Of a stretch of DNA of 10,872 nucleotides, positions 3,837 through 10,872 are shown piece after piece. The DNA is taken from IMG/VR virus record IMGVR_UViG_2737471833_000011; one strand, given 5' to 3'. Source of the stretch: a virus (lineage: Duplodnaviria; Heunggongvirae; Uroviricota; Caudoviricetes). The first letter of the stretch is position 1. Every line of letters starts with the position of its first letter. The translations under genes and the position numbers were made by a program. Below the pieces are notes generated by a model. It was given only the letters and a program-made list of their open reading frames with translations. It searched no databases and had not been told where the DNA came from.

Positions 3837-4011
3837 CCATAATCCGATGCCGGGAAGCCGTTACAAGGACAGTCACGGGGCTGTAGTGACCGTACAGCGC
3901 GTCGAGCATAACCGAGTGACCTTTTACCGCGAGGGCTATCAGTCGCCATGTGTTCAGCCTTTGGAGAGATTCGTTAATGAGTTCGTGGAGGTGCGCCGTG
4001 ATACTGAATGA
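3829..4011 (+). CDS. Small hypothetical protein, 60 aa
   Basis: ATG 3829 sits inside the CCATGCGTAA junction with the upstream stop; GGAGGT lies 5 nt upstream. Stop TGA 4009-4011. Confidence 0.6.
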   Translation: MRNHNPMPGSRYKDSHGAVVTVQRVEHNRVTFYREGYQSPCVQPLERFVNEFVEVRRDTE

Positions 4012-4915
4012 ACCTGCCGCCCAGAAAGAAGCCTTTAATCTGGCTAGCCTGTTAACAAATGTTAACCCTTACAACCTTATAAAACCAAAGGTCGCGAACG
4101 GCTGCCTGTTATCAATTGTTATGGTTAATGACTTAGCAAAACTTAGCCTGAACCTCACAAAACCTGACATCCACGCACGGGGAATGACGACAAATGATGA
4201 CATTTTAAACCAAGAAATAATCACCTCTAAAAAGCTGATTGTGGGGAATAAATTCCCCCTGCTGGCTGGTGGTATGAACTGGATTGCTACCGTTGTGAAC
4301 CGTTCCACATCGACTTTCGCGACAAATACGCGTGCGCTGGAAGATTTATTAGGGGTCGTTACGCGAGAAGGTGAGTATTCGGAGTCCATAAAAAAGGGCA
4401 GTGCCAGCAGGTCGGACCACCAGCACCGGAAACCGTGTTATATTTCCCCCGCTGGTGTAAATCCACCAGCCGGGCGTGAGAACCTGTTTAATGAGCAAAA
4501 GGCGACACAGACGCGCCCAGCGTCTTTTTTTGTGTCATGCCATCGCGCAACCATACCCAGCGGCAAAGCCCGCACAGTATCTATGGTGGCGCTGGTGGGG
4601 CAGCCGAAAGGCTGGCCGGTTTCCTTTTGCGCCGGTTTTCTCACCCCTGCCAGCGTCACCGCCCCTTATGAGTGTGAGAACTCAGGCGGTGACTCCTTAA
4701 ATTTGCAAAAGGAGGCTGCCATCATGGCTACTACCCCTACCCAAAAACCGCAATTTATCTGGATTATCGCCGCAGTTCGCCGCGATTGCCCGACAATTAC
4801 CGCCAAAATTCATCATATCGCCGCAGAGACTGAGCAGGAAGCACGCCGCTCACTGGCACGCGAGCACGTCACCTTTTTCGCAGGCCGTATCCGTCAGGAG
4901 GTGCGCCATGCGTAA
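3977..4915 (+). CDS. Alternative long reading of a stop-free frame (about 312 aa); may be a real gene, a fused/pseudogenised gene, or partly non-coding
   Basis: The frame is stop-free from 3950 to 4915. Candidate starts are ATG 3977 (GGAG at 3963-3966) and GTG 3998, the latter preceded by GGAGGTGCGCC, the same 11-mer that precedes ATG 4908. Against a single gene: hairpin 4448-4474, terminator-like 4509-4531, inverted repeat 4655-4693 and a strong internal SD+ATG at 4724 all fall inside it. Mutually exclusive with the 4724-4915 call. Confidence 0.35.
   Translation: MSSWRCAVILNEPAAQKEAFNLASLLTNVNPYNLIKPKVANGCLLSIVMVNDLAKLSLNLTKPDIHARGMTTNDDILNQEIITSKKLIVGNKFPLLAGGMNWIATVVNRSTSTFATNTRALEDLLGVVTREGEYSESIKKGSASRSDHQHRKPCYISPAGVNPPAGRENLFNEQKATQTRPASFFVSCHRATIPSGKARTVSMVALVGQPKGWPVSFCAGFLTPASVTAPYECENSGGDSLNLQKEAAIMATTPTQKPQFIWIIAAVRRDCPTITAKIHHIAAETEQEARRSLAREHVTFFAGRIRQEVRHA
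4509..4531 (+). terminator. Candidate rho-independent terminator (6-bp stem AGACGC/GCGTCT, loop GCCCA, then T7)
   Basis: Stem 4509-4514 pairs with 4520-4525, followed by the T-run 4525-4531. The short stem makes it weak to moderate. It is orientation-specific to the + strand. Confidence 0.4.
4655..4693. promoter_or_regulatory. 9-bp perfect inverted repeat GTCACCGCC / GGCGGTGAC with a nested 5-bp stem, 15 nt upstream of a strong SD
   Basis: Arms at 4655-4663 and 4685-4693. Inner stem TGAGT (4669-4673) / ACTCA (4680-4684). The SD AAGGAGG is at 4709-4715. Could be an operator or an RNA structure gating translation. Confidence 0.35.
4724..4915 (+). CDS. Small hypothetical protein, 63 aa (short alternative to the long frame)
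   Basis: Strong SD AAGGAGG (4709-4715) 8 nt before ATG 4724. Product MATTPTQKPQFIWIIAAVRRDCPTITAKIHHIAAETEQEARRSLAREHVTFFAGRIRQEVRHA. Stop TAA 4913-4915 lies inside the CCATGCGTAA junction. Confidence 0.5.
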   Translation: MATTPTQKPQFIWIIAAVRRDCPTITAKIHHIAAETEQEARRSLAREHVTFFAGRIRQEVRHA

Positions 4916-6290: not shown

Positions 6291-6632
6291 ATGATTACTA
6301 AAAATTTCCGACTTAATGCGCTGGCGAATAAGTATGCGTCGGCACTGTATAACCACATTACGGCTATCAATGGTGGCAATTACTTCATGGTTGACGCGGC
6401 AGGCCAGCAAATCCGTGTGGAAATCGTCAATGGAGTAAAAGGCGTTCGCAGCCTGATCGATAGCTACACACTGGCAGCCATGAAAGTGTCCTACCCGCAG
6501 TGGGAAACCGTGGGGATCGAGATTCTTGATCGTTGCGTCACTAATGACGGATTGACTGACGTAGGGCGCGAGATATGGCAAAGCATGGTTAAAGACATGG
6601 GCGCGACCGTGGCAGGGGGCAACCATGCGTAA
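6291..6632 (+). CDS. Hypothetical protein, 113 aa
   Basis: ATG 6291 preceded by a G-run SD (6282-6286). Stop TAA 6630-6632 lies inside the CCATGCGTAA junction that contains the primase start. Confidence 0.8.
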   Translation: MITKNFRLNALANKYASALYNHITAINGGNYFMVDAAGQQIRVEIVNGVKGVRSLIDSYTLAAMKVSYPQWETVGIEILDRCVTNDGLTDVGREIWQSMVKDMGATVAGGNHA

Positions 6633-9066
6633 TATCGACCTTATCCGCGAAGTGACCAGTGCCGCCGCCGGGCGCTGGCCTTATGTGCTGGCTGGATTGT
6701 CTATCGACGTGCCTGATTCATCGCGCCGCCATTCTCCATGCCCTGCATGTGGTGGAAAAGACCGTTTCAGATTCGACGACAACGGGCGCGGTAGCTTTAT
6801 CTGCAATCAGTGTGGCGCTGGTGACGGTTTAGACCTGATTAAGAAGGTGAACAACTGCGACACTACGGAGGCGGCACAGCTTGCCGCTGATGTGCTGGGT
6901 ATTGATTACCGGGCAGCGGAAACCGACCCGGTGGCAGCGAGCCATAGAAGAGAGCAACTGGAAGCTGACCGCCAGCAGCGTGAGCAGGAGCGCCAGAAAC
7001 AGGCAGCAGAGGATGCAGAGCAGCGAAGGGCTACGTTTGCCCGTCTGTATGCCGGAATGCGCCAGAGTGCCACACAGGGAGAATCTGATTACCTGCAATC
7101 AAAAGGGCTGACCGGGTTTAACTATCCGGTTATGCCGGATGGTTCGTTATTGCTGGAGCTGGTGGACGAATCCGGCGCAGTGGCAGCAGCGCAAACCATT
7201 ACACCGCAGGGAGAGAAGCGACTCCTGACAGGTTCAGCAAAGCGCGGGGCATATCACGCCGTAAACGCACCAGAACAGCCGCAGAGCGTATTAATTGCCG
7301 AGGGGCTGGCGACGGCCCTGTCCGTTCACCTGATGCGCCCGGACGCGCTTACAGTGGCGGCAATTGACGCCGGGAACCTGATCCACGTTGCCGGAGTAAT
7401 GCGCCGGAAACACCCGCAGTCGCAAATTATCATTGCCGCAGATAACGACCACCAGCAGGACGAACAGGCGAACACGGGCAAAGATGCCGCAGAGAAAGCC
7501 GCCTTATCCGTGGCTGGCTGGGTGGCGCTGCCGCCGACAGACTACAAAGCCGACTGGGACGACTACCGCCAGCAAAACGGGCTGGAAGTCGCTACGGCTG
7601 CGTTTAACGATTCGATGTACCAGATTCAGGGGGAAGCCGTGAAACCACAACTACAGGCCATTGTGGGCGGTAAATCCCGCCGTAAAGCCGAAGTCGGAGA
7701 TATTGCACAAATGGCAGCCAGCCAGAAAGCGCGGTTGCTTTCATCTCGCTGGGATATGTTGGCGGTCAACCCTGATAGTGGCACTGTTTACTGCTACGAA
7801 TCTGGCGTATGGGTGAAGCTACCAGACAGCGAATTAGAAAGGGTTATGGTGGCAATTTTCGACGAGCACGAAGCCCACTACACCGAAAAGGGGATTAAAT
7901 CGGTTGTCGCAACCATGAAGCTGCAAATACCGGTAATTGGTGAGCGGAGCGGGGATCTGATTGGTTTTGATAACGGCGTTTATGACCTCGCTACGCAGAC
8001 GTTTTCCGCCCATTCGCCGGGTAACTGGCTGATGAACCACAATGGGATCACCTACACCCCGCCAGCGCCGGGGGAAAATATTACCACCAGCGCCCCCAAT
8101 TTTACCCGTTGGCTGAATCATGCAACGGCTGGCGACCATCATAAGGCCGAGCGTATCAAAGCAGCCTTGTTTATGGTGCTGGCGAAGCGTCACGACTGGC
8201 AGCTATTCATTGAGATAACTGGCGAGGGCGGCAGTGGGAAATCCGTATTCAGCAGCATAGCAACCACGCTGGCAGGTGAACACAACACCGCCAGCGGTAG
8301 CATGATGACGCTGGACACCGCACGGGGACGGGCGCAGTTCGTAGGGAAAAGCCTGATTATTATGCCTGACCAGACCCGCTACGTTGGAGAGGGTGCGGGG
8401 ATTAAAGCCATTACGGGCGGCGATCCGGTAGAGATTGATGGGAAATATGAAAAGCAGTTCACAACCGTGATAAATGCCGTTGTTATGGCAACCAATAACG
8501 AGCCGATGACATTCACGGAGCGAAACGGGGGCATTGCCCGCCGCCGCGTGATATTCCCGTTTAATAACCCGGTATCAGACGCAGACAAAGACCCGGATTT
8601 AACCGCAAAAATCAGGCGAGAAATCCCGGTGATTATCCGCCACCTGCTAACCACCTTTGCCGACCAGAACAAAGCAAAGGCACTATTACTAGAGCAGCGC
8701 GATTCGCAGGAGGCGCTAGAGGTTAAACGCGGCACAGATCCGGTTATCGATATGTGTGCGGCACTTTTTTTCATGAACGAACCCAAAGGCATGATGATGG
8801 GCGGAGGTACATGGGCAGGCCAGCCAGAGCCTAGGACGTATCTTTATCATCTTTATCTGGCGTTTATGGAGTATCACGGTTTGGGTAAACCGCTTTCCGT
8901 CAATAAGTTTTCACGCGCCATAAAATCAGCAGCAAAAGAGTACCGAGCCAGCTACCTGACGAGAAGCATTAACGGCAGAGCGCAAACCAACGTTGGCTAT
9001 AACGAGAAGGCTGAGGAGTTCATGCCACGCGCTTACGGTGTGGAGAGCGGGCAGAGTGATGATTGA
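6625..9066 (+). CDS. P4 alpha-like bifunctional DNA primase / helicase (zinc ribbon + Toprim + P-loop NTPase)
   Basis: 813-aa ORF. N-terminal zinc-ribbon cysteines CPACGG...CNQCG. Toprim-like acidic motif IIIAADNDHQQDEQ. Walker A GEGGSGKS at nt 8221-8244. Domain order is as in P4 alpha and PICI pri-rep proteins. Stop TGA 9064-9066. Confidence 0.93.
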   Translation: MRNIDLIREVTSAAAGRWPYVLAGLSIDVPDSSRRHSPCPACGGKDRFRFDDNGRGSFICNQCGAGDGLDLIKKVNNCDTTEAAQLAADVLGIDYRAAETDPVAASHRREQLEADRQQREQERQKQAAEDAEQRRATFARLYAGMRQSATQGESDYLQSKGLTGFNYPVMPDGSLLLELVDESGAVAAAQTITPQGEKRLLTGSAKRGAYHAVNAPEQPQSVLIAEGLATALSVHLMRPDALTVAAIDAGNLIHVAGVMRRKHPQSQIIIAADNDHQQDEQANTGKDAAEKAALSVAGWVALPPTDYKADWDDYRQQNGLEVATAAFNDSMYQIQGEAVKPQLQAIVGGKSRRKAEVGDIAQMAASQKARLLSSRWDMLAVNPDSGTVYCYESGVWVKLPDSELERVMVAIFDEHEAHYTEKGIKSVVATMKLQIPVIGERSGDLIGFDNGVYDLATQTFSAHSPGNWLMNHNGITYTPPAPGENITTSAPNFTRWLNHATAGDHHKAERIKAALFMVLAKRHDWQLFIEITGEGGSGKSVFSSIATTLAGEHNTASGSMMTLDTARGRAQFVGKSLIIMPDQTRYVGEGAGIKAITGGDPVEIDGKYEKQFTTVINAVVMATNNEPMTFTERNGGIARRRVIFPFNNPVSDADKDPDLTAKIRREIPVIIRHLLTTFADQNKAKALLLEQRDSQEALEVKRGTDPVIDMCAALFFMNEPKGMMMGGGTWAGQPEPRTYLYHLYLAFMEYHGLGKPLSVNKFSRAIKSAAKEYRASYLTRSINGRAQTNVGYNEKAEEFMPRAYGVESGQSDD

Positions 9067-9084
9067 AACTTTTACGGCGGCACT

Positions 9085-9332
9085 TATCCCTACTGCCCTA
9101 CTAAAAACGAGACGAGGCCAGACGTAGCAAGGCTTTAAACTAGGTAGGGATATATATTTTTATCCCTACTTATCCCTACATATCCCTACCAAATAAAACA
9201 GGCAGTAAAATGCCGTTGAAGTGATTTAGTAGGGATAAGTAGGGTTATGTAGGGCAACAAAATTGAATGCCTACCAGTCTGAAAGCCTTGCCATTCGTGG
9301 CATGAGCCAGTTAGTAGGGATTGGTAGGGATA
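9085..9332. repeat. Iteron array (putative origin of replication / crr-like region): at least 10 copies of the GTAGGGA / TCCCTAC core
   Basis: TATCCCTAC at 9085, 9161, 9171 and 9181, the last three as 10-bp tandem units. The complement GTAGGG(A/T/C) at 9144, 9229, 9239, 9249 (another 10-bp tandem triplet), 9314 and 9324. Degenerate copies at 9094 and 9271. Flanked by a C5/G8 hairpin (9336-9365) and an AT-rich stretch (about 9431-9520). Sits immediately 3' of the primase gene. Confidence 0.75.
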
Positions 9333-9405
9333 TTACACCCCCAAAAAGATTCTATGGGGGGGGTGAGCTTAAAACGAAACTTGTCAAAACTTGACACACA
9401 GAACG

Positions 9406-9438
9406 ATGCCACCAGCTACTGAGCGGCGGCATTTTTTT
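9406..9438 (+). terminator. Possible intrinsic terminator (imperfect stem ATGCCaCC / GGcGGCAT + T7); may instead be part of the origin's AT-rich unwinding element
   Basis: ATGCC (9406-9410) pairs with GGCAT (9428-9432); the inner pairs have a mismatch. T-run 9432-9438. Confidence 0.3.
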
Positions 9439-9494
9439 GTGCTATTTGTTTCATATTTTGCAATTACGGTGATAAATATTGCTATTTGTGAAAC

Positions 9495-9500
9495 TATAAT
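9495..9500 (+). promoter_or_regulatory. Consensus -10 hexamer TATAAT upstream of the RHH-like gene
   Basis: Perfect TATAAT 33 nt upstream of ATG 9533. No good -35 at 17 bp. An upstream TGTCAA-N3-TTGACA palindrome (9382-9396) and a direct repeat GCTATTTGT (9441-9449, 9481-9489) are candidate operator elements. Confidence 0.35.
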
Positions 9501-9532
9501 AACTGTTGTTTTATACAGTTCTAAGGGGCGTT

Positions 9533-9706
9533 ATGGCTATTTCAGTAAAGCCGGTATTGATAAGTGAGAAGCAAATGGAAGCGATAAAGAAAATTCAGGA
9601 GGAGCAGCGTAAAAAATCAGAGGTAGGAGTTGCGCCAACGATCCACGAAATTGCTCGGGGATTAATGGATAAGGCGCTAGCCTCACTGGCAAGCGAGGGC
9701 GCGTAA
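9533..9706 (+). CDS. Small ribbon-helix-helix-like DNA-binding protein, 57 aa
   Basis: ATG 9533 with AAGGGG at 9523-9528; the track's 9506 start is a TTG upstream of that SD. The pattern PVLISEKQMEAIKKIQEE ... PTIHEIARGLMDKALASL is consistent with a beta-strand plus two helices (RHH/CopG/Arc-like). Stop TAA 9704-9706 overlaps the next ATG (TAATG). Confidence 0.65.
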   Translation: MAISVKPVLISEKQMEAIKKIQEEQRKKSEVGVAPTIHEIARGLMDKALASLASEGA

Positions 9707-10377
9707 TGGGCGCCATTCACCAGATATATGAGCATGAAATGTTCTATAACTGGATAGGTGATGGTAAACGATGTGTAGCATTCCACGAAGCGGGACATGC
9801 GGTAGCTGCATGGCTTATTCGCTTAGATATACAGGTTATCGCCGTTATGGATGAATACGGTTACGTTGCTGGCGAACATGTACATGAGGCCAAGTGTTTG
9901 GGCGTTGTTAAACACAGCATAATTCACAGCCACGATCTCGGGCGTTTGCGGGATAGTAAATCTGGTGTAGTTGGGCAGAATGGTAAAGTTATCCCTTTCA
10001 TACGTTACTATGCGGATGGTATAAAGCGCGATGCAAAAAAGGCCGCTTTTGTATCCCTCGCCGGACCAGTAAGCGAAGCCCTTTACGAAAACAACGATAT
10101 TTTCAACAAAAAGTATTCGCTACCTCATCGCTATGACATGGCTAACGTAAATGACATGCTCGATTTAATCTGCGCTACAGATAAGCAAATTAACAGGGAG
10201 TTAATGCTTTCTAAACTCGTTGAAAAGACCAAAGCCCTCATGGCTCAATACTGGTATGAAGTAGAAAAAATAGCGCATTTGCTTGAACGGGATAGCATTG
10301 TGAATGGTCGAAATGTTAGCTCGTTAATTGGCATCAACGTCATAGACCGGGCAACGCCATTTTTGCTGGTGGAATAA
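9706..10377 (+). CDS. Stand-alone HEXXH zinc metallopeptidase, FtsH (M41)-like protease domain without an AAA+ module, 223 aa
   Basis: GAGGG SD 6 nt before ATG 9706. Exact FtsH-type motif FHEAGHAV at nt 9781-9804. Downstream SLAGPVSEALYE and MANVNDM resemble the FtsH third-ligand Glu region and the GASNDI motif. No Walker motifs. AT-richer than the primase gene. Confidence 0.85.
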   Translation: MGAIHQIYEHEMFYNWIGDGKRCVAFHEAGHAVAAWLIRLDIQVIAVMDEYGYVAGEHVHEAKCLGVVKHSIIHSHDLGRLRDSKSGVVGQNGKVIPFIRYYADGIKRDAKKAAFVSLAGPVSEALYENNDIFNKKYSLPHRYDMANVNDMLDLICATDKQINRELMLSKLVEKTKALMAQYWYEVEKIAHLLERDSIVNGRNVSSLIGINVIDRATPFLLVE

Positions 10378-10590
10378 CTCCAGACCAAACTCATTCGATG
10401 ATTCATTTCTCCACGGGTAAGCTATGCCGGTAGACCTAACTCCGCAGTATTACCGGAATCAGCCAGGCTACAGGCACACAGGAGGCCACGCAACACAATC
10501 CGCGCCTGGATGGGAGTTATATAATACCCCTGATGATTTTGACCAACGCCCACCATTCGACGATGAAACGCCATTCTGGGGGAGATAAAC

Positions 10591-10872
10591 ATGGTAAACG
10601 ACAGTAAAGCCGAGGATCTGGAAGCAAAAGGGCTGTACCGACGCGCCGCAGCGCGATGGATGGAAGTCATGCTGTTATGCACCGAGGACGATGATCGGGA
10701 ATGGATAAAGCGCCGCCGTGAAACGTGTCTGGAGAACGTGAAGCGCCCGCCCGTGAAGGTTGAGGACTTTGGCGACCTACATAAAGCTGTTACCGAAACG
10801 CAACACCGCATGGGGATAGCGCAACCGAACGGTAACGCCTTCAGGTTAAATGGCGGCAATAGGCAAAGGTAG
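10591..10872 (+). CDS. PerC-like small transcriptional regulator, 93 aa (family assignment tentative)
   Basis: GGGGGAG SD 6 nt before ATG 10591; stop TAG 10870-10872. The N-terminal EDLEAKGLYRRAAARWMEVM resembles the conserved PerC-family N-terminus, recalled from memory and not searched. A possible TATAAT at 10520-10525 lies upstream. Confidence 0.7.
   Translation: MVNDSKAEDLEAKGLYRRAAARWMEVMLLCTEDDDREWIKRRRETCLENVKRPPVKVEDFGDLHKAVTETQHRMGIAQPNGNAFRLNGGNRQR

Follow-up and report, generated by a model that had tools for sequence, protein, structure and literature searches.

The M41 peptidase domain of FtsH (MEROPS family M41) is the closest known relative of the protein considered here, and is represented by T. 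thermophilus FtsH (2DHR), T. maritima FtsH (2CE7), an isolated domain from A. aeolicus (2DI4), and human AFG3L2 (6NYY). The third zinc ligand of M41 peptidases is a downstream Asp (PMC5939537). In ImmR/ImmA of ICEBs1, as in DdrO/IrrE and CapH/CapP, a repressor is combined with a metallopeptidase of the COG2856/M78 type; the ImmA/ImmR and IrrE repressor-protease systems are summarised in PMC2701414. A further point of comparison is provided by the EcCIMP1-type phage-inducible chromosomal islands (PICIs) of E. coli: the helper of EcCIMP1 is the P22-like phage Kapi1, and the PICI slot downstream of the primase is described as a 'packaging module' (PMC11773190). The locus that concerns us is a pair of overlapping open reading frames, ORF1 and ORF2, on a viral DNA of 10,872 nucleotides (Caudoviricetes; IMG/VR record IMGVR_UViG_2737471833_000011), the whole of which is called the window below. 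ORF2 encodes a peptidase domain of the FtsH type, and ORF1 a small protein that resembles ribbon-helix-helix (RHH) DNA binders.

Do these two genes form a dedicated system? A sequence-only reading of the window had described a coupled module of regulator and protease. The overlapping stop/start junction behind that description is real; the idea of a dedicated pair is weakened, since each gene is common without the other. The explanation that we prefer, and hold tentatively, is that a conserved unit of promoter and leader regulator, possibly under SOS control, drives a swapped-in cargo, a soluble peptidase directed against a helper-phage or host protein.

The M41 domain of ORF2

ORF2 (9706..10377, plus strand; 223 residues) is an M41, or FtsH-type, metallopeptidase domain detached from any AAA+ unfoldase, as seen from its fold, catalytic residues and profile homology. 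The zinc motif FHEAGHAV occupies residues 26-33, with HEAGH at residues 27-31 (9784-9798). It had been called an exact FtsH motif, and HEAGH is indeed invariant both in 16 close homologues and in a set of 86 close and distant ones; His27, Glu28 and His31 do not vary across ORF2 homologues. The third ligand had been placed at the Glu of PVSEALYE. This residue (Glu124, 10075-10077) was rejected, as it aligns with the Glu of the FtsH 'LAGRAAE' motif and Asp144 (10135-10137) fits better in the FtsH profile alignment. Asp144, in the sequence RYDMANV, is conserved in at least 90% of the 86 homologues. Because M41 peptidases use a downstream Asp, the 'END' Asp of FtsH, to which Asp144 aligns, Asp144 is predicted to be the likely third zinc ligand.

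The profile of the 86-sequence family matches Thermus thermophilus FtsH with an E value of 8e-18. The alignment is colinear: HEAGH pairs with HEAGH, LAGPxAE with LAGRAAE, Asp144 with the 'END' Asp, and the C-terminal helices with their counterparts. Searched as a single sequence, ORF2 reaches 21.2 bits against Pfam M41 (PF01434), below the cut-off of 29.9, and the 20 matched residues cover the HEXXH only; many relatives of ORF2 carry PF01434 matches. Pfam leaves the M41 assignment under threshold, as it leaves ORF1 without an RHH family. Structure prediction, by contrast, bears the assignment out. The AlphaFold2 model of ORF2 (pLDDT 86, pTM 0.84) has the fold of the M41 protease domain, and the top 50 Foldseek matches in the PDB are all protease domains of FtsH, AFG3L2, YME1 or FtsHi, the best having an E value of 4e-5 and a TM score of ~0.5 over ~220 columns. 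The best match among viral structures is a standalone M41 protein of 214 residues from an uncultured phage.

The absence of an unfoldase, also claimed earlier, holds. ORF2 contains no Walker A motif, and its 223 residues are too few for an ATPase module. Because it lacks both the N-terminal membrane anchor and the AAA+ ATPase, ORF2 is not an FtsH; it is a domain-level M41 relative and not an orthologue. The protein is, by its fold, a soluble zincin of M41 type and, with its full set of catalytic residues, would be expected to have peptidase activity. Two other Pfam matches were rejected as chance, namely RPN5_C (22.3 bits over a 23-residue helix) and Peptidase_M50B (16 bits), both at the level of a motif or helix. 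There was no match to Peptidase_M78/ImmA at E <=10 in Pfam or NCBIfam, and none to the capP models of PADLOC.

The promoter and the leader gene ORF1

ORF1 (9533..9706, plus strand) encodes 57 residues from an ATG start, with a Shine-Dalgarno sequence AAGGGG at 9523-9528. As first described, the two genes are joined by a TAATG (9704..9708, plus strand) in which one base is common to the ORF1 stop and the ORF2 start. The Shine-Dalgarno sequence of ORF2, GAGGG (9693-9697), lies within the ORF1 codons for ...EGA. It is proposed that this junction couples the translation of ORF1 and ORF2. Some RefSeq annotations start ORF2 at Met12; nonetheless, the TAATG start is conserved in four independent cassettes, and the identical junction occurs in L009, L010, L022 and L023. 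Both genes are under purifying selection, with ratios of nonsynonymous to synonymous substitution (dN/dS) of ~0.08 for ORF1 and ~0.2 for ORF2. They are also AT-richer than the neighbouring primase gene, as had been pointed out, with a GC content of 0.471 (ORF1) and 0.438 (ORF2) against 0.551.

How is the pair transcribed? A terminator-like hairpin followed by a U7 tract (9397..9441, plus strand) lies upstream of ORF1. Its predicted free energy is -22.3 kcal/mol (z = -5.6), and none of 200 shuffled sequences was as stable. Upstream regions of the E. coli group conserve the hairpin, which opens the block shared with EcCIMP1-type islands (9377-9681) and is predicted to act as an insulator that separates the ORF1-ORF2 unit from the primase operon. 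The pair was said to have its own TATAAT, and this -10 element (9495..9500, plus strand) is conserved, being invariant in most of 53 distinct upstream regions of ORF1 homologues. A generic sigma-70 promoter scan did not call the promoter because there is no -35 consensus.

Abutting the -10 element is an operator-like dyad (9448..9494, plus strand), an inverted repeat with two 17-nt arms (9448-9464 and 9478-9494). The dyad holds near-palindromic ATTGCAAT-like sites at 9457-9464 and 9478-9485; only three ATTGCAAT sites with at most one mismatch occur in the 10.9-kb window, and these two, 21 bp apart, are among them. In the alignment of the 53 upstream regions, a TTTCAT-N4-TTGCAAT block is nearly invariant, a second, related block abuts the -10 element, and another conserved element lies directly 3' of it. 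Repeats of ATTGCAAT mark the promoters of cassettes in which two partner genes, A and B, precede an ORF1-like gene and an M41 gene, and are absent from the promoters of A-B-M41 cassettes that lack ORF1. Because the sites co-occur with the ORF1 gene family, ORF1 is suggested to be the protein that binds these candidate operators.

At the predicted transcription start lies a CTGT-N8-ACAG palindrome (9503..9518, plus strand), a possible LexA (SOS) box. It is the sole match in the window, where 0.14 matches are expected by chance. The palindrome, AACTGTTGTTTTATACAGTT, has both arms identical to those of AACTGTATATAAATACAGTT, found upstream of dinD (L008:5851-5870 and L022:17621-17640), a gene annotated as DNA damage-inducible that adjoins these islands. 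We take AACTGTATATAAATACAGTT to be the LexA box of dinD. LexA control of the ORF1-ORF2 operon is plausible because the arms of the two boxes are identical, and LexA may be a direct repressor of the post-primase operon in this PICI family. The E. coli and L039-L041 groups have a perfect core of the palindrome, and the Klebsiella-type groups one that is a base short.

What kind of protein is ORF1? Its 45 homologues, confined to the Enterobacterales, have an invariant ...S-x-x-GVAP-x-x-H-x-IARGL-x-x-KAL core. The sequence (VKPVLISE...IARGLMDKAL) resembles the CopG/Arc pattern of RHH proteins, and the monomer model (pLDDT 75), with an extended segment at residues 1-11 and helices at 12-28 and 37-55, fits the topology of half an RHH dimer, with an inter-helix loop that is unusually long. 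No RHH match was found in Pfam, NCBIfam or a PDB profile search, Foldseek gave no match for the model, and when the ORF1 family was compared by hhalign with three genuine RHH proteins that partner distant M41 genes, no significant similarity emerged. Of the earlier remark that ORF1 looks like an RHH binder, the pattern and the predicted topology survive, without backing from profiles, fold comparison or hhalign. Two other assignments were rejected: Cas11a/Csa5 (PADLOC, E 0.017) is a chance-level match, and a glutaredoxin-like family is likewise matched by chance.

Mosaic origin and distribution of the two genes

Comparison by blastn reveals a mosaic. The window is island backbone at 9000-9378 (96% to L008, a sister island without the ORF1-ORF2 module), an EcCIMP1-type block at 9377-9681 (97% to L006), of M41-cassette type at 9626-10442 (95.7% to L009), and island backbone again at 10479-10872 (98.5% to L008). 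The crossover lies within ORF1, in 56 bp common to both sources, and ORF1 is a chimera, with a 5' part (to ~9681) of EcCIMP1 type and a 3' part (from 9626) of M41-cassette type. In L008, the same slot is occupied by a gene of 100 codons and a gene for single-stranded DNA-binding protein (SSB). What remains of this ssb is a 54-residue ORF at 10424..10588 (plus strand), as the incoming ORF1-M41 segment displaced the 100-residue gene together with the 5' portion of ssb. By comparison of translations, the final 36 residues of the ORF are identical to the C-terminus of the L008 SSB, with its acidic tail ...FDDETPFWGR. It was rejected as a third gene of the module, being an SSB remnant with no family match. 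Because the crossover lies within ORF1 and an SSB remnant was left behind, ORF1 genes serve as recombination handles for the exchange of payloads.

The promoter and ORF1 are found far more widely than this pairing. Among 5,426 complete E. coli genomes searched, the block at 9377-9687 (terminator, promoter and most of ORF1) occurs at 90-97% identity in ~550 further genomes that lack M41. In L006 and L007, DUF2824 and P22-like DNA-ejection genes come after ORF1, as in EcCIMP1. Not one of 57 IMG/VR loci with ORF1 homologues continues with an M41 gene; the next gene is ejection-, DUF2824- or tape-measure-like, often with overlapping start and stop codons. A survey of presence and absence, as proposed with the sequence-only reading, thus finds the pair, in the complete arrangement of the window, in ~26 of the E. 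coli genomes, and ORF1 alone in the ~550 genomes and 57 viral loci. Promoter and ORF1 make up a leader unit that is general to the post-primase operon and functions without M41, and the pairing in the window is a recent recombinant rather than a dedicated two-part system of this lineage.

The operons led by ORF1 in L006 (6158-9907) and L007 (6158-10994) combine DUF2824 with homologues of P22-like ejection proteins (gp7/gp20/gp16-like sizes), and in other genera ORF1 homologues precede tape-measure-like proteins of 560-690 residues.

The M41 gene itself is rarer in E. coli. A DNA search found it in 53 of the 5,426 genomes (~1%), including enteropathogenic E. coli (EPEC) E2348/69. Close homologues of ORF2 (74-99% identity), annotated in RefSeq as 'peptidase M41 family protein', occur in Escherichia, Salmonella, Enterobacter, Shigella and Dickeya, and a clade at ~45% identity in Klebsiella, Raoultella and Citrobacter. 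Searched against two databases, a profile of these homologues recovers 569 proteins and 2,221 cluster representatives, respectively, nearly all of 150-250 residues, and this family of >2,200 clusters is experimentally uncharacterised. All but one of the contexts examined are phage, prophage or satellite, with integrases, primases or structural genes nearby. In different islands the M41 cassette occupies three different positions. With its patchy presence, mosaic surroundings, changing position and a GC content below that of the backbone, ORF2 is mobile cargo.

The native form of this cargo is a four-gene cassette, A-B-ORF1-like-M41, with the same TAATG junction. In satellites it lies directly past the integrase or past PerC, and in prophages at the boundary of replication and late genes. 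A prophage M41 clade at ~45% identity has partners A (~185 residues) and B (~62-74 residues) and no ORF1 homologue. A and B are conserved across prophages and satellites (L009:5154-5906, L002:6986-7750 and L005:7215-7941), and accompany M41 even where an ORF1 homologue is absent. Neither has a match in Pfam, PHROGs, NCBIfam, PADLOC or the PDB; a 350-residue lipoprotein that is another cassette partner has none in PHROGs.

Beyond these clades, no small gene of DNA-binding type adjoins ~13 standalone M41 genes on viral contigs of mostly high GC content. Of ten distant standalone M41 genes with a usable context, four lie directly behind a small DNA-binding gene. The four partners are an Antitox_RHH protein (33 bits, above threshold), a NikA-like RHH protein (33 bits, overlapping), a sub-threshold RHH protein, and an XRE protein (HTH_3) that overlaps by 4 nt and has an HTH_17 gene and an integrase after it. 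In three of the four cases the site is a divergent junction, across from replication or early genes. The other six follow an integrase, a 195-residue protein or a 70-residue protein, or stand alone. Viral contigs were scanned in two ways: with the M41 alignment, 340 pattern matches yielded 6 that were confirmed, by comparison with the first sequence only, so that distant relatives were lost; a DNA-pattern scan gave 20 further M41 loci, mostly high-GC. The peptide pattern around HEAGH is common to housekeeping FtsH. A tblastn search with ORF1 and ORF2 against 50,697 phage genomes found no match.

Other forms of the gene are in circulation. In P0022, which has 27 member sequences on 66 contigs, the N-terminal ~46 residues of AntA are fused in frame to M41 from residue 45 (window 3003 and ~9840); the fusion implies an internal deletion of ~6.8 kb, with loss of the primase, origin, ORF1 and HEXXH motif. 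P0040-P0042 are frameshifted or truncated alleles. On a metagenomic viral contig (L027:3857-5138, L028:3857-5138), two standalone M41 paralogues of 196 and 188 residues, each with HEAGH, lie in tandem. The toxin-antitoxin defence system RosmerTA (PADLOC: RmrA 414 bits, RmrT 56 bits) adjoins an A-B-ORF1-like-M41 cassette at L022:9780-11647 (EPEC E2348/69) and L010:7991-9832, in the variable integrase-side region; the island is of another type and occupies the same site between yicC and dinD.

What is the setting of the pair in the window? The earlier identification of a phage satellite can be made more precise: the window is a PICI-type integrative satellite. It contains an integrase (1-1260), a primase-helicase of the Zn-ribbon/Toprim/D5 type (6625-9066), a PerC regulator (from 10591), an AlpA-family regulator, an AntA antirepressor, and int-alpA, isrK and C4 RNAs. 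Pfam finds Phage_AlpA, AntA, Zn_Ribbon_Prim with Toprim_3, D5_N, DUF5906 and Pox_D5, and PerC, and annotates no structural gene in the window; Rfam finds the int-alpA and C4 RNAs. The combination of integrase, AlpA-family regulator and primase-helicase, without structural or lysis genes and in ~10-15 kb, is that of a PICI. A near-identical island of ~13 kb lies between yicC and dinD in E. coli FLI21 (L001). The iteron-type replication origin belongs to the island backbone (9082..9333, no strand assigned; 96% identical to the backbone of L008). It consists of 11 GTAGGG/CCCTAC repeats at 9088-9329, many spaced at 10 bp, in inverted arrays, and ORF1-ORF2 lies 3' of it, in agreement with its reported position just past the origin.

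Some features of the island lie apart from the pair. The int-alpA RNA (66 bits; 1269-1335) is located between the integrase and the next ORF. That ORF (1354-2235, 293 residues), directly past the integrase, has a low GC content of 0.41 and no match in Pfam or PADLOC; its position is the integrase-side cargo hotspot where other islands hold the M41 cassette and Rosmer. A 321-residue ORF (3950-4915) overlaps the isrK RNA (56.7 bits) and C4 antisense RNA (79.6 bits) placed by Rfam at 4451-4530 and 4579-4666. Because of these overlaps it is unlikely to be one protein, and the region looks like the c4-icd-ant immunity arrangement of P1. In the FLI21 island, IS903B sits inside the antA/antB antirepressor gene (L001:7587-8555), which is intact in the window.

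Possible roles and known systems

The sequence-only reading did not recognise the pair as a named system, and the searches likewise supply no name. At E <=10, ORF2 has no match in PADLOC-DB v2, candidate families included; neither gene has a match in PHROGs, and no toxin-antitoxin or defence model of PADLOC matches ORF1-ORF2. In the satellite, defence and toxin-antitoxin literature searched, no mention was found of a standalone M41 peptidase or of a pair of RHH and M41 genes.

How might the locus work? In the reading that we prefer, the terminator would close the primase operon, and a separately transcribed operon would start at the conserved promoter, which comprises the TATAAT, the ATTGCAAT-like dyads over the -35 region and the SOS-box-like palindrome at the start site. 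ORF1, as a small RHH-like protein, would most likely bind the dyads and set the level of expression. Promoter and ORF1 together would form the expression cassette of this satellite family, which mostly drives virion, ejection or tape-measure-like genes, and here ORF2 was swapped in by the crossover inside ORF1. Once the operon fires, upon induction by the helper or the SOS response, ORF2 would be made by translational coupling. Because it lacks an unfoldase, ORF2 would be limited to exposed or loosely folded stretches of specific proteins. It would act in trans as an accessory payload against a protein of the helper phage or host, and serve in interference, exclusion or counter-defence.

Several observations weigh against this explanation. 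The RHH fold and DNA binding of ORF1 have no support from profile, fold or profile-profile searches, and the core of the SOS box is imperfect outside the E. coli groups. On its own, an M41 domain might lack activity or depend on a partner. The protein is absent from the defence and anti-defence databases searched, and the payload reading names no substrate. Finally, in all E. coli genomes examined the gene immediately preceding M41 belongs to the ORF1 family, and an RHH or XRE gene has that place for 4 of the 10 distant standalone M41 genes. One possible meaning of such adjacency is that the peptidase cuts the small DNA-binding protein.

This last possibility leads to a switch of the ImmR/ImmA type built from different folds, which we consider doubtful, although it comes next in probability. 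ORF1 would repress its own promoter until DNA damage or helper infection led the co-translated M41 peptidase to cleave it, opening the operon, PerC included, with positive feedback. The architecture parallels immR-immA in its operator-bearing promoter, small DNA-binding-like gene and overlapping HEXXH gene (PMC2701414). The four distant M41 genes behind RHH or XRE genes, three at divergent junctions, point the same way, and a protease without an unfoldase would suit small repressors with flexible parts. Against the switch, the same promoter and ORF1 operate without M41 in ~550 E. coli genomes and on 57 viral contigs, so that M41 is not required for the regulation of ORF1. The A-B-M41 prophage clade dispenses with ORF1, ~13 viral M41 genes have no small DNA-binding neighbour, the ORF1 of the window is a chimera produced by the swap, and ORF2 matches neither M78 nor COG2856. 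The switch is kept alive because the adjacency of M41 and DNA-binding genes is recurrent, though non-obligate.

The co-occurrence data bear equally on a type II toxin-antitoxin or abortive infection module, in which M41 would be a toxin that degrades essential host proteins and ORF1 an RHH antitoxin and autorepressor. The antitoxin-first order, one-base overlap, small DNA-binding-like partner and mobile setting are as expected of such a module; one distant M41 partner belongs to Pfam Antitox_RHH, truncated and frameshifted M41 alleles circulate (P0040-P0042), and RosmerTA and other toxin-antitoxin genes lie near some loci. However, the obligate co-occurrence of type II pairs is not seen, as either gene is found without the other, and PADLOC offers no match. 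ORF1 is also the partner of virion-protein cargo that is not toxic, its chimeric form works with M41, and the dN/dS of ~0.2 for ORF2 is that of an ordinary enzyme. The module is accordingly improbable, and is the weakest of the roles put forward in the sequence-only reading. Like the switch, it is weakened because each gene is common without the other.

A broader proposal, more speculative still and a long shot at present, is that standalone M41 proteins are a new class of effectors used by phages and satellites in their conflicts. Without an unfoldase of their own, they might co-assemble with or borrow host FtsH or some other AAA+ machine and so retarget proteolysis, or might clip exposed loops directly. 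Their targets would be proteins of the helper phage, of rival phages or of defence systems, and an RHH-gated SOS-box promoter would time their action to induction.

Could ORF2 instead be a morphogenetic or processing protease, whose substrates for trimming are virion, ejection or packaging proteins from helper, satellite or prophage? The idea arises because ORF2 fills a slot otherwise holding virion, ejection or packaging genes. The post-primase slot is the packaging module of PICIs (PMC11773190), sister islands have ejection- or tape-measure-like genes there, and the prophage cassette lies directly upstream of small-terminase-like or capsid genes. Its neighbours vary with the phage type, however; the cassette also occurs on the integrase side, far from structural genes, it has its own terminator and promoter in the manner of a moron, and no homologue was found in 50,697 sequenced phages. 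A processing role is very improbable. The least probable role of all is that of a modulator of host FtsH, which would mix with or dock on the FtsH hexamer through its C-terminal helices and poison or retarget turnover: those helices (165-209) are homologous to the C-terminal region of FtsH and the entire domain superposes on FtsH protomers, but a pure decoy would not need the full catalytic set that is conserved, and members of the family are present in Actinobacteria-like phages too, the FtsH of whose hosts differs greatly.

The ORF1-ORF2 locus is, then, a well-defined candidate, a HEXXH peptidase of mobile elements together with a small regulator, and not a demonstrated new system. Motor-less FtsH-type peptidases, with more than 2,000 clusters on phages, prophages and satellites and no experimental study in the literature searched, are clonable candidates for new regulated proteolysis between phage, satellite and host. 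The locus further shows a unit of promoter and leader gene as a recombination handle for payload exchange in the post-primase operon of a PICI, and points to a possible direct control of that operon by LexA.

How does it compare with known systems? With the EcCIMP1-type PICIs (PMC11773190) the window shares the integrase, AlpA, antirepressor, primase and PerC, and its terminator, promoter and 5' part of ORF1 (9377-9681) are 92-97% identical to L006 and L007. There, ORF1 is followed by DUF2824 and DNA-ejection or transfer genes; here, by M41 and a residual piece of an SSB gene. Type II systems with an RHH antitoxin, and RosmerTA, which adjoins the M41 cassette in EPEC E2348/69, likewise have a small upstream partner of DNA-binding type, overlapping genes and a mobile context. 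ORF1 and ORF2 differ from type II pairs in that their pairing is non-obligate and has no database match, and from Rosmer in that RmrA is an XRE-peptidase fusion, with an M78-like peptidase inside the antitoxin.

The M41 domain of FtsH is colinear with ORF2 in the HEXXH helix, the LAGxxAE helix, the downstream Asp and the C-terminal helical bundle. ORF2 lacks the transmembrane segment, the AAA+ module and ~40 residues between the Asp helix and the C-terminal helices, and FtsH is a housekeeping gene, whereas ORF2 is encoded on satellites and prophages. ImmR/ImmA offers the nearest likeness in organisation, since there too a small DNA-binding-type gene overlaps that of a HEXXH peptidase behind an operator-bearing promoter on an inducible integrative element (PMC2701414). 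The fold is M41 here and M78 there, the partner is RHH-like rather than XRE, and ORF1 is widespread without a peptidase; cleavage of ORF1 by ORF2 is hypothetical. If ORF2 does cleave its upstream partner, the logic of ImmR/ImmA would have been reinvented independently, with other protease and DNA-binding folds.

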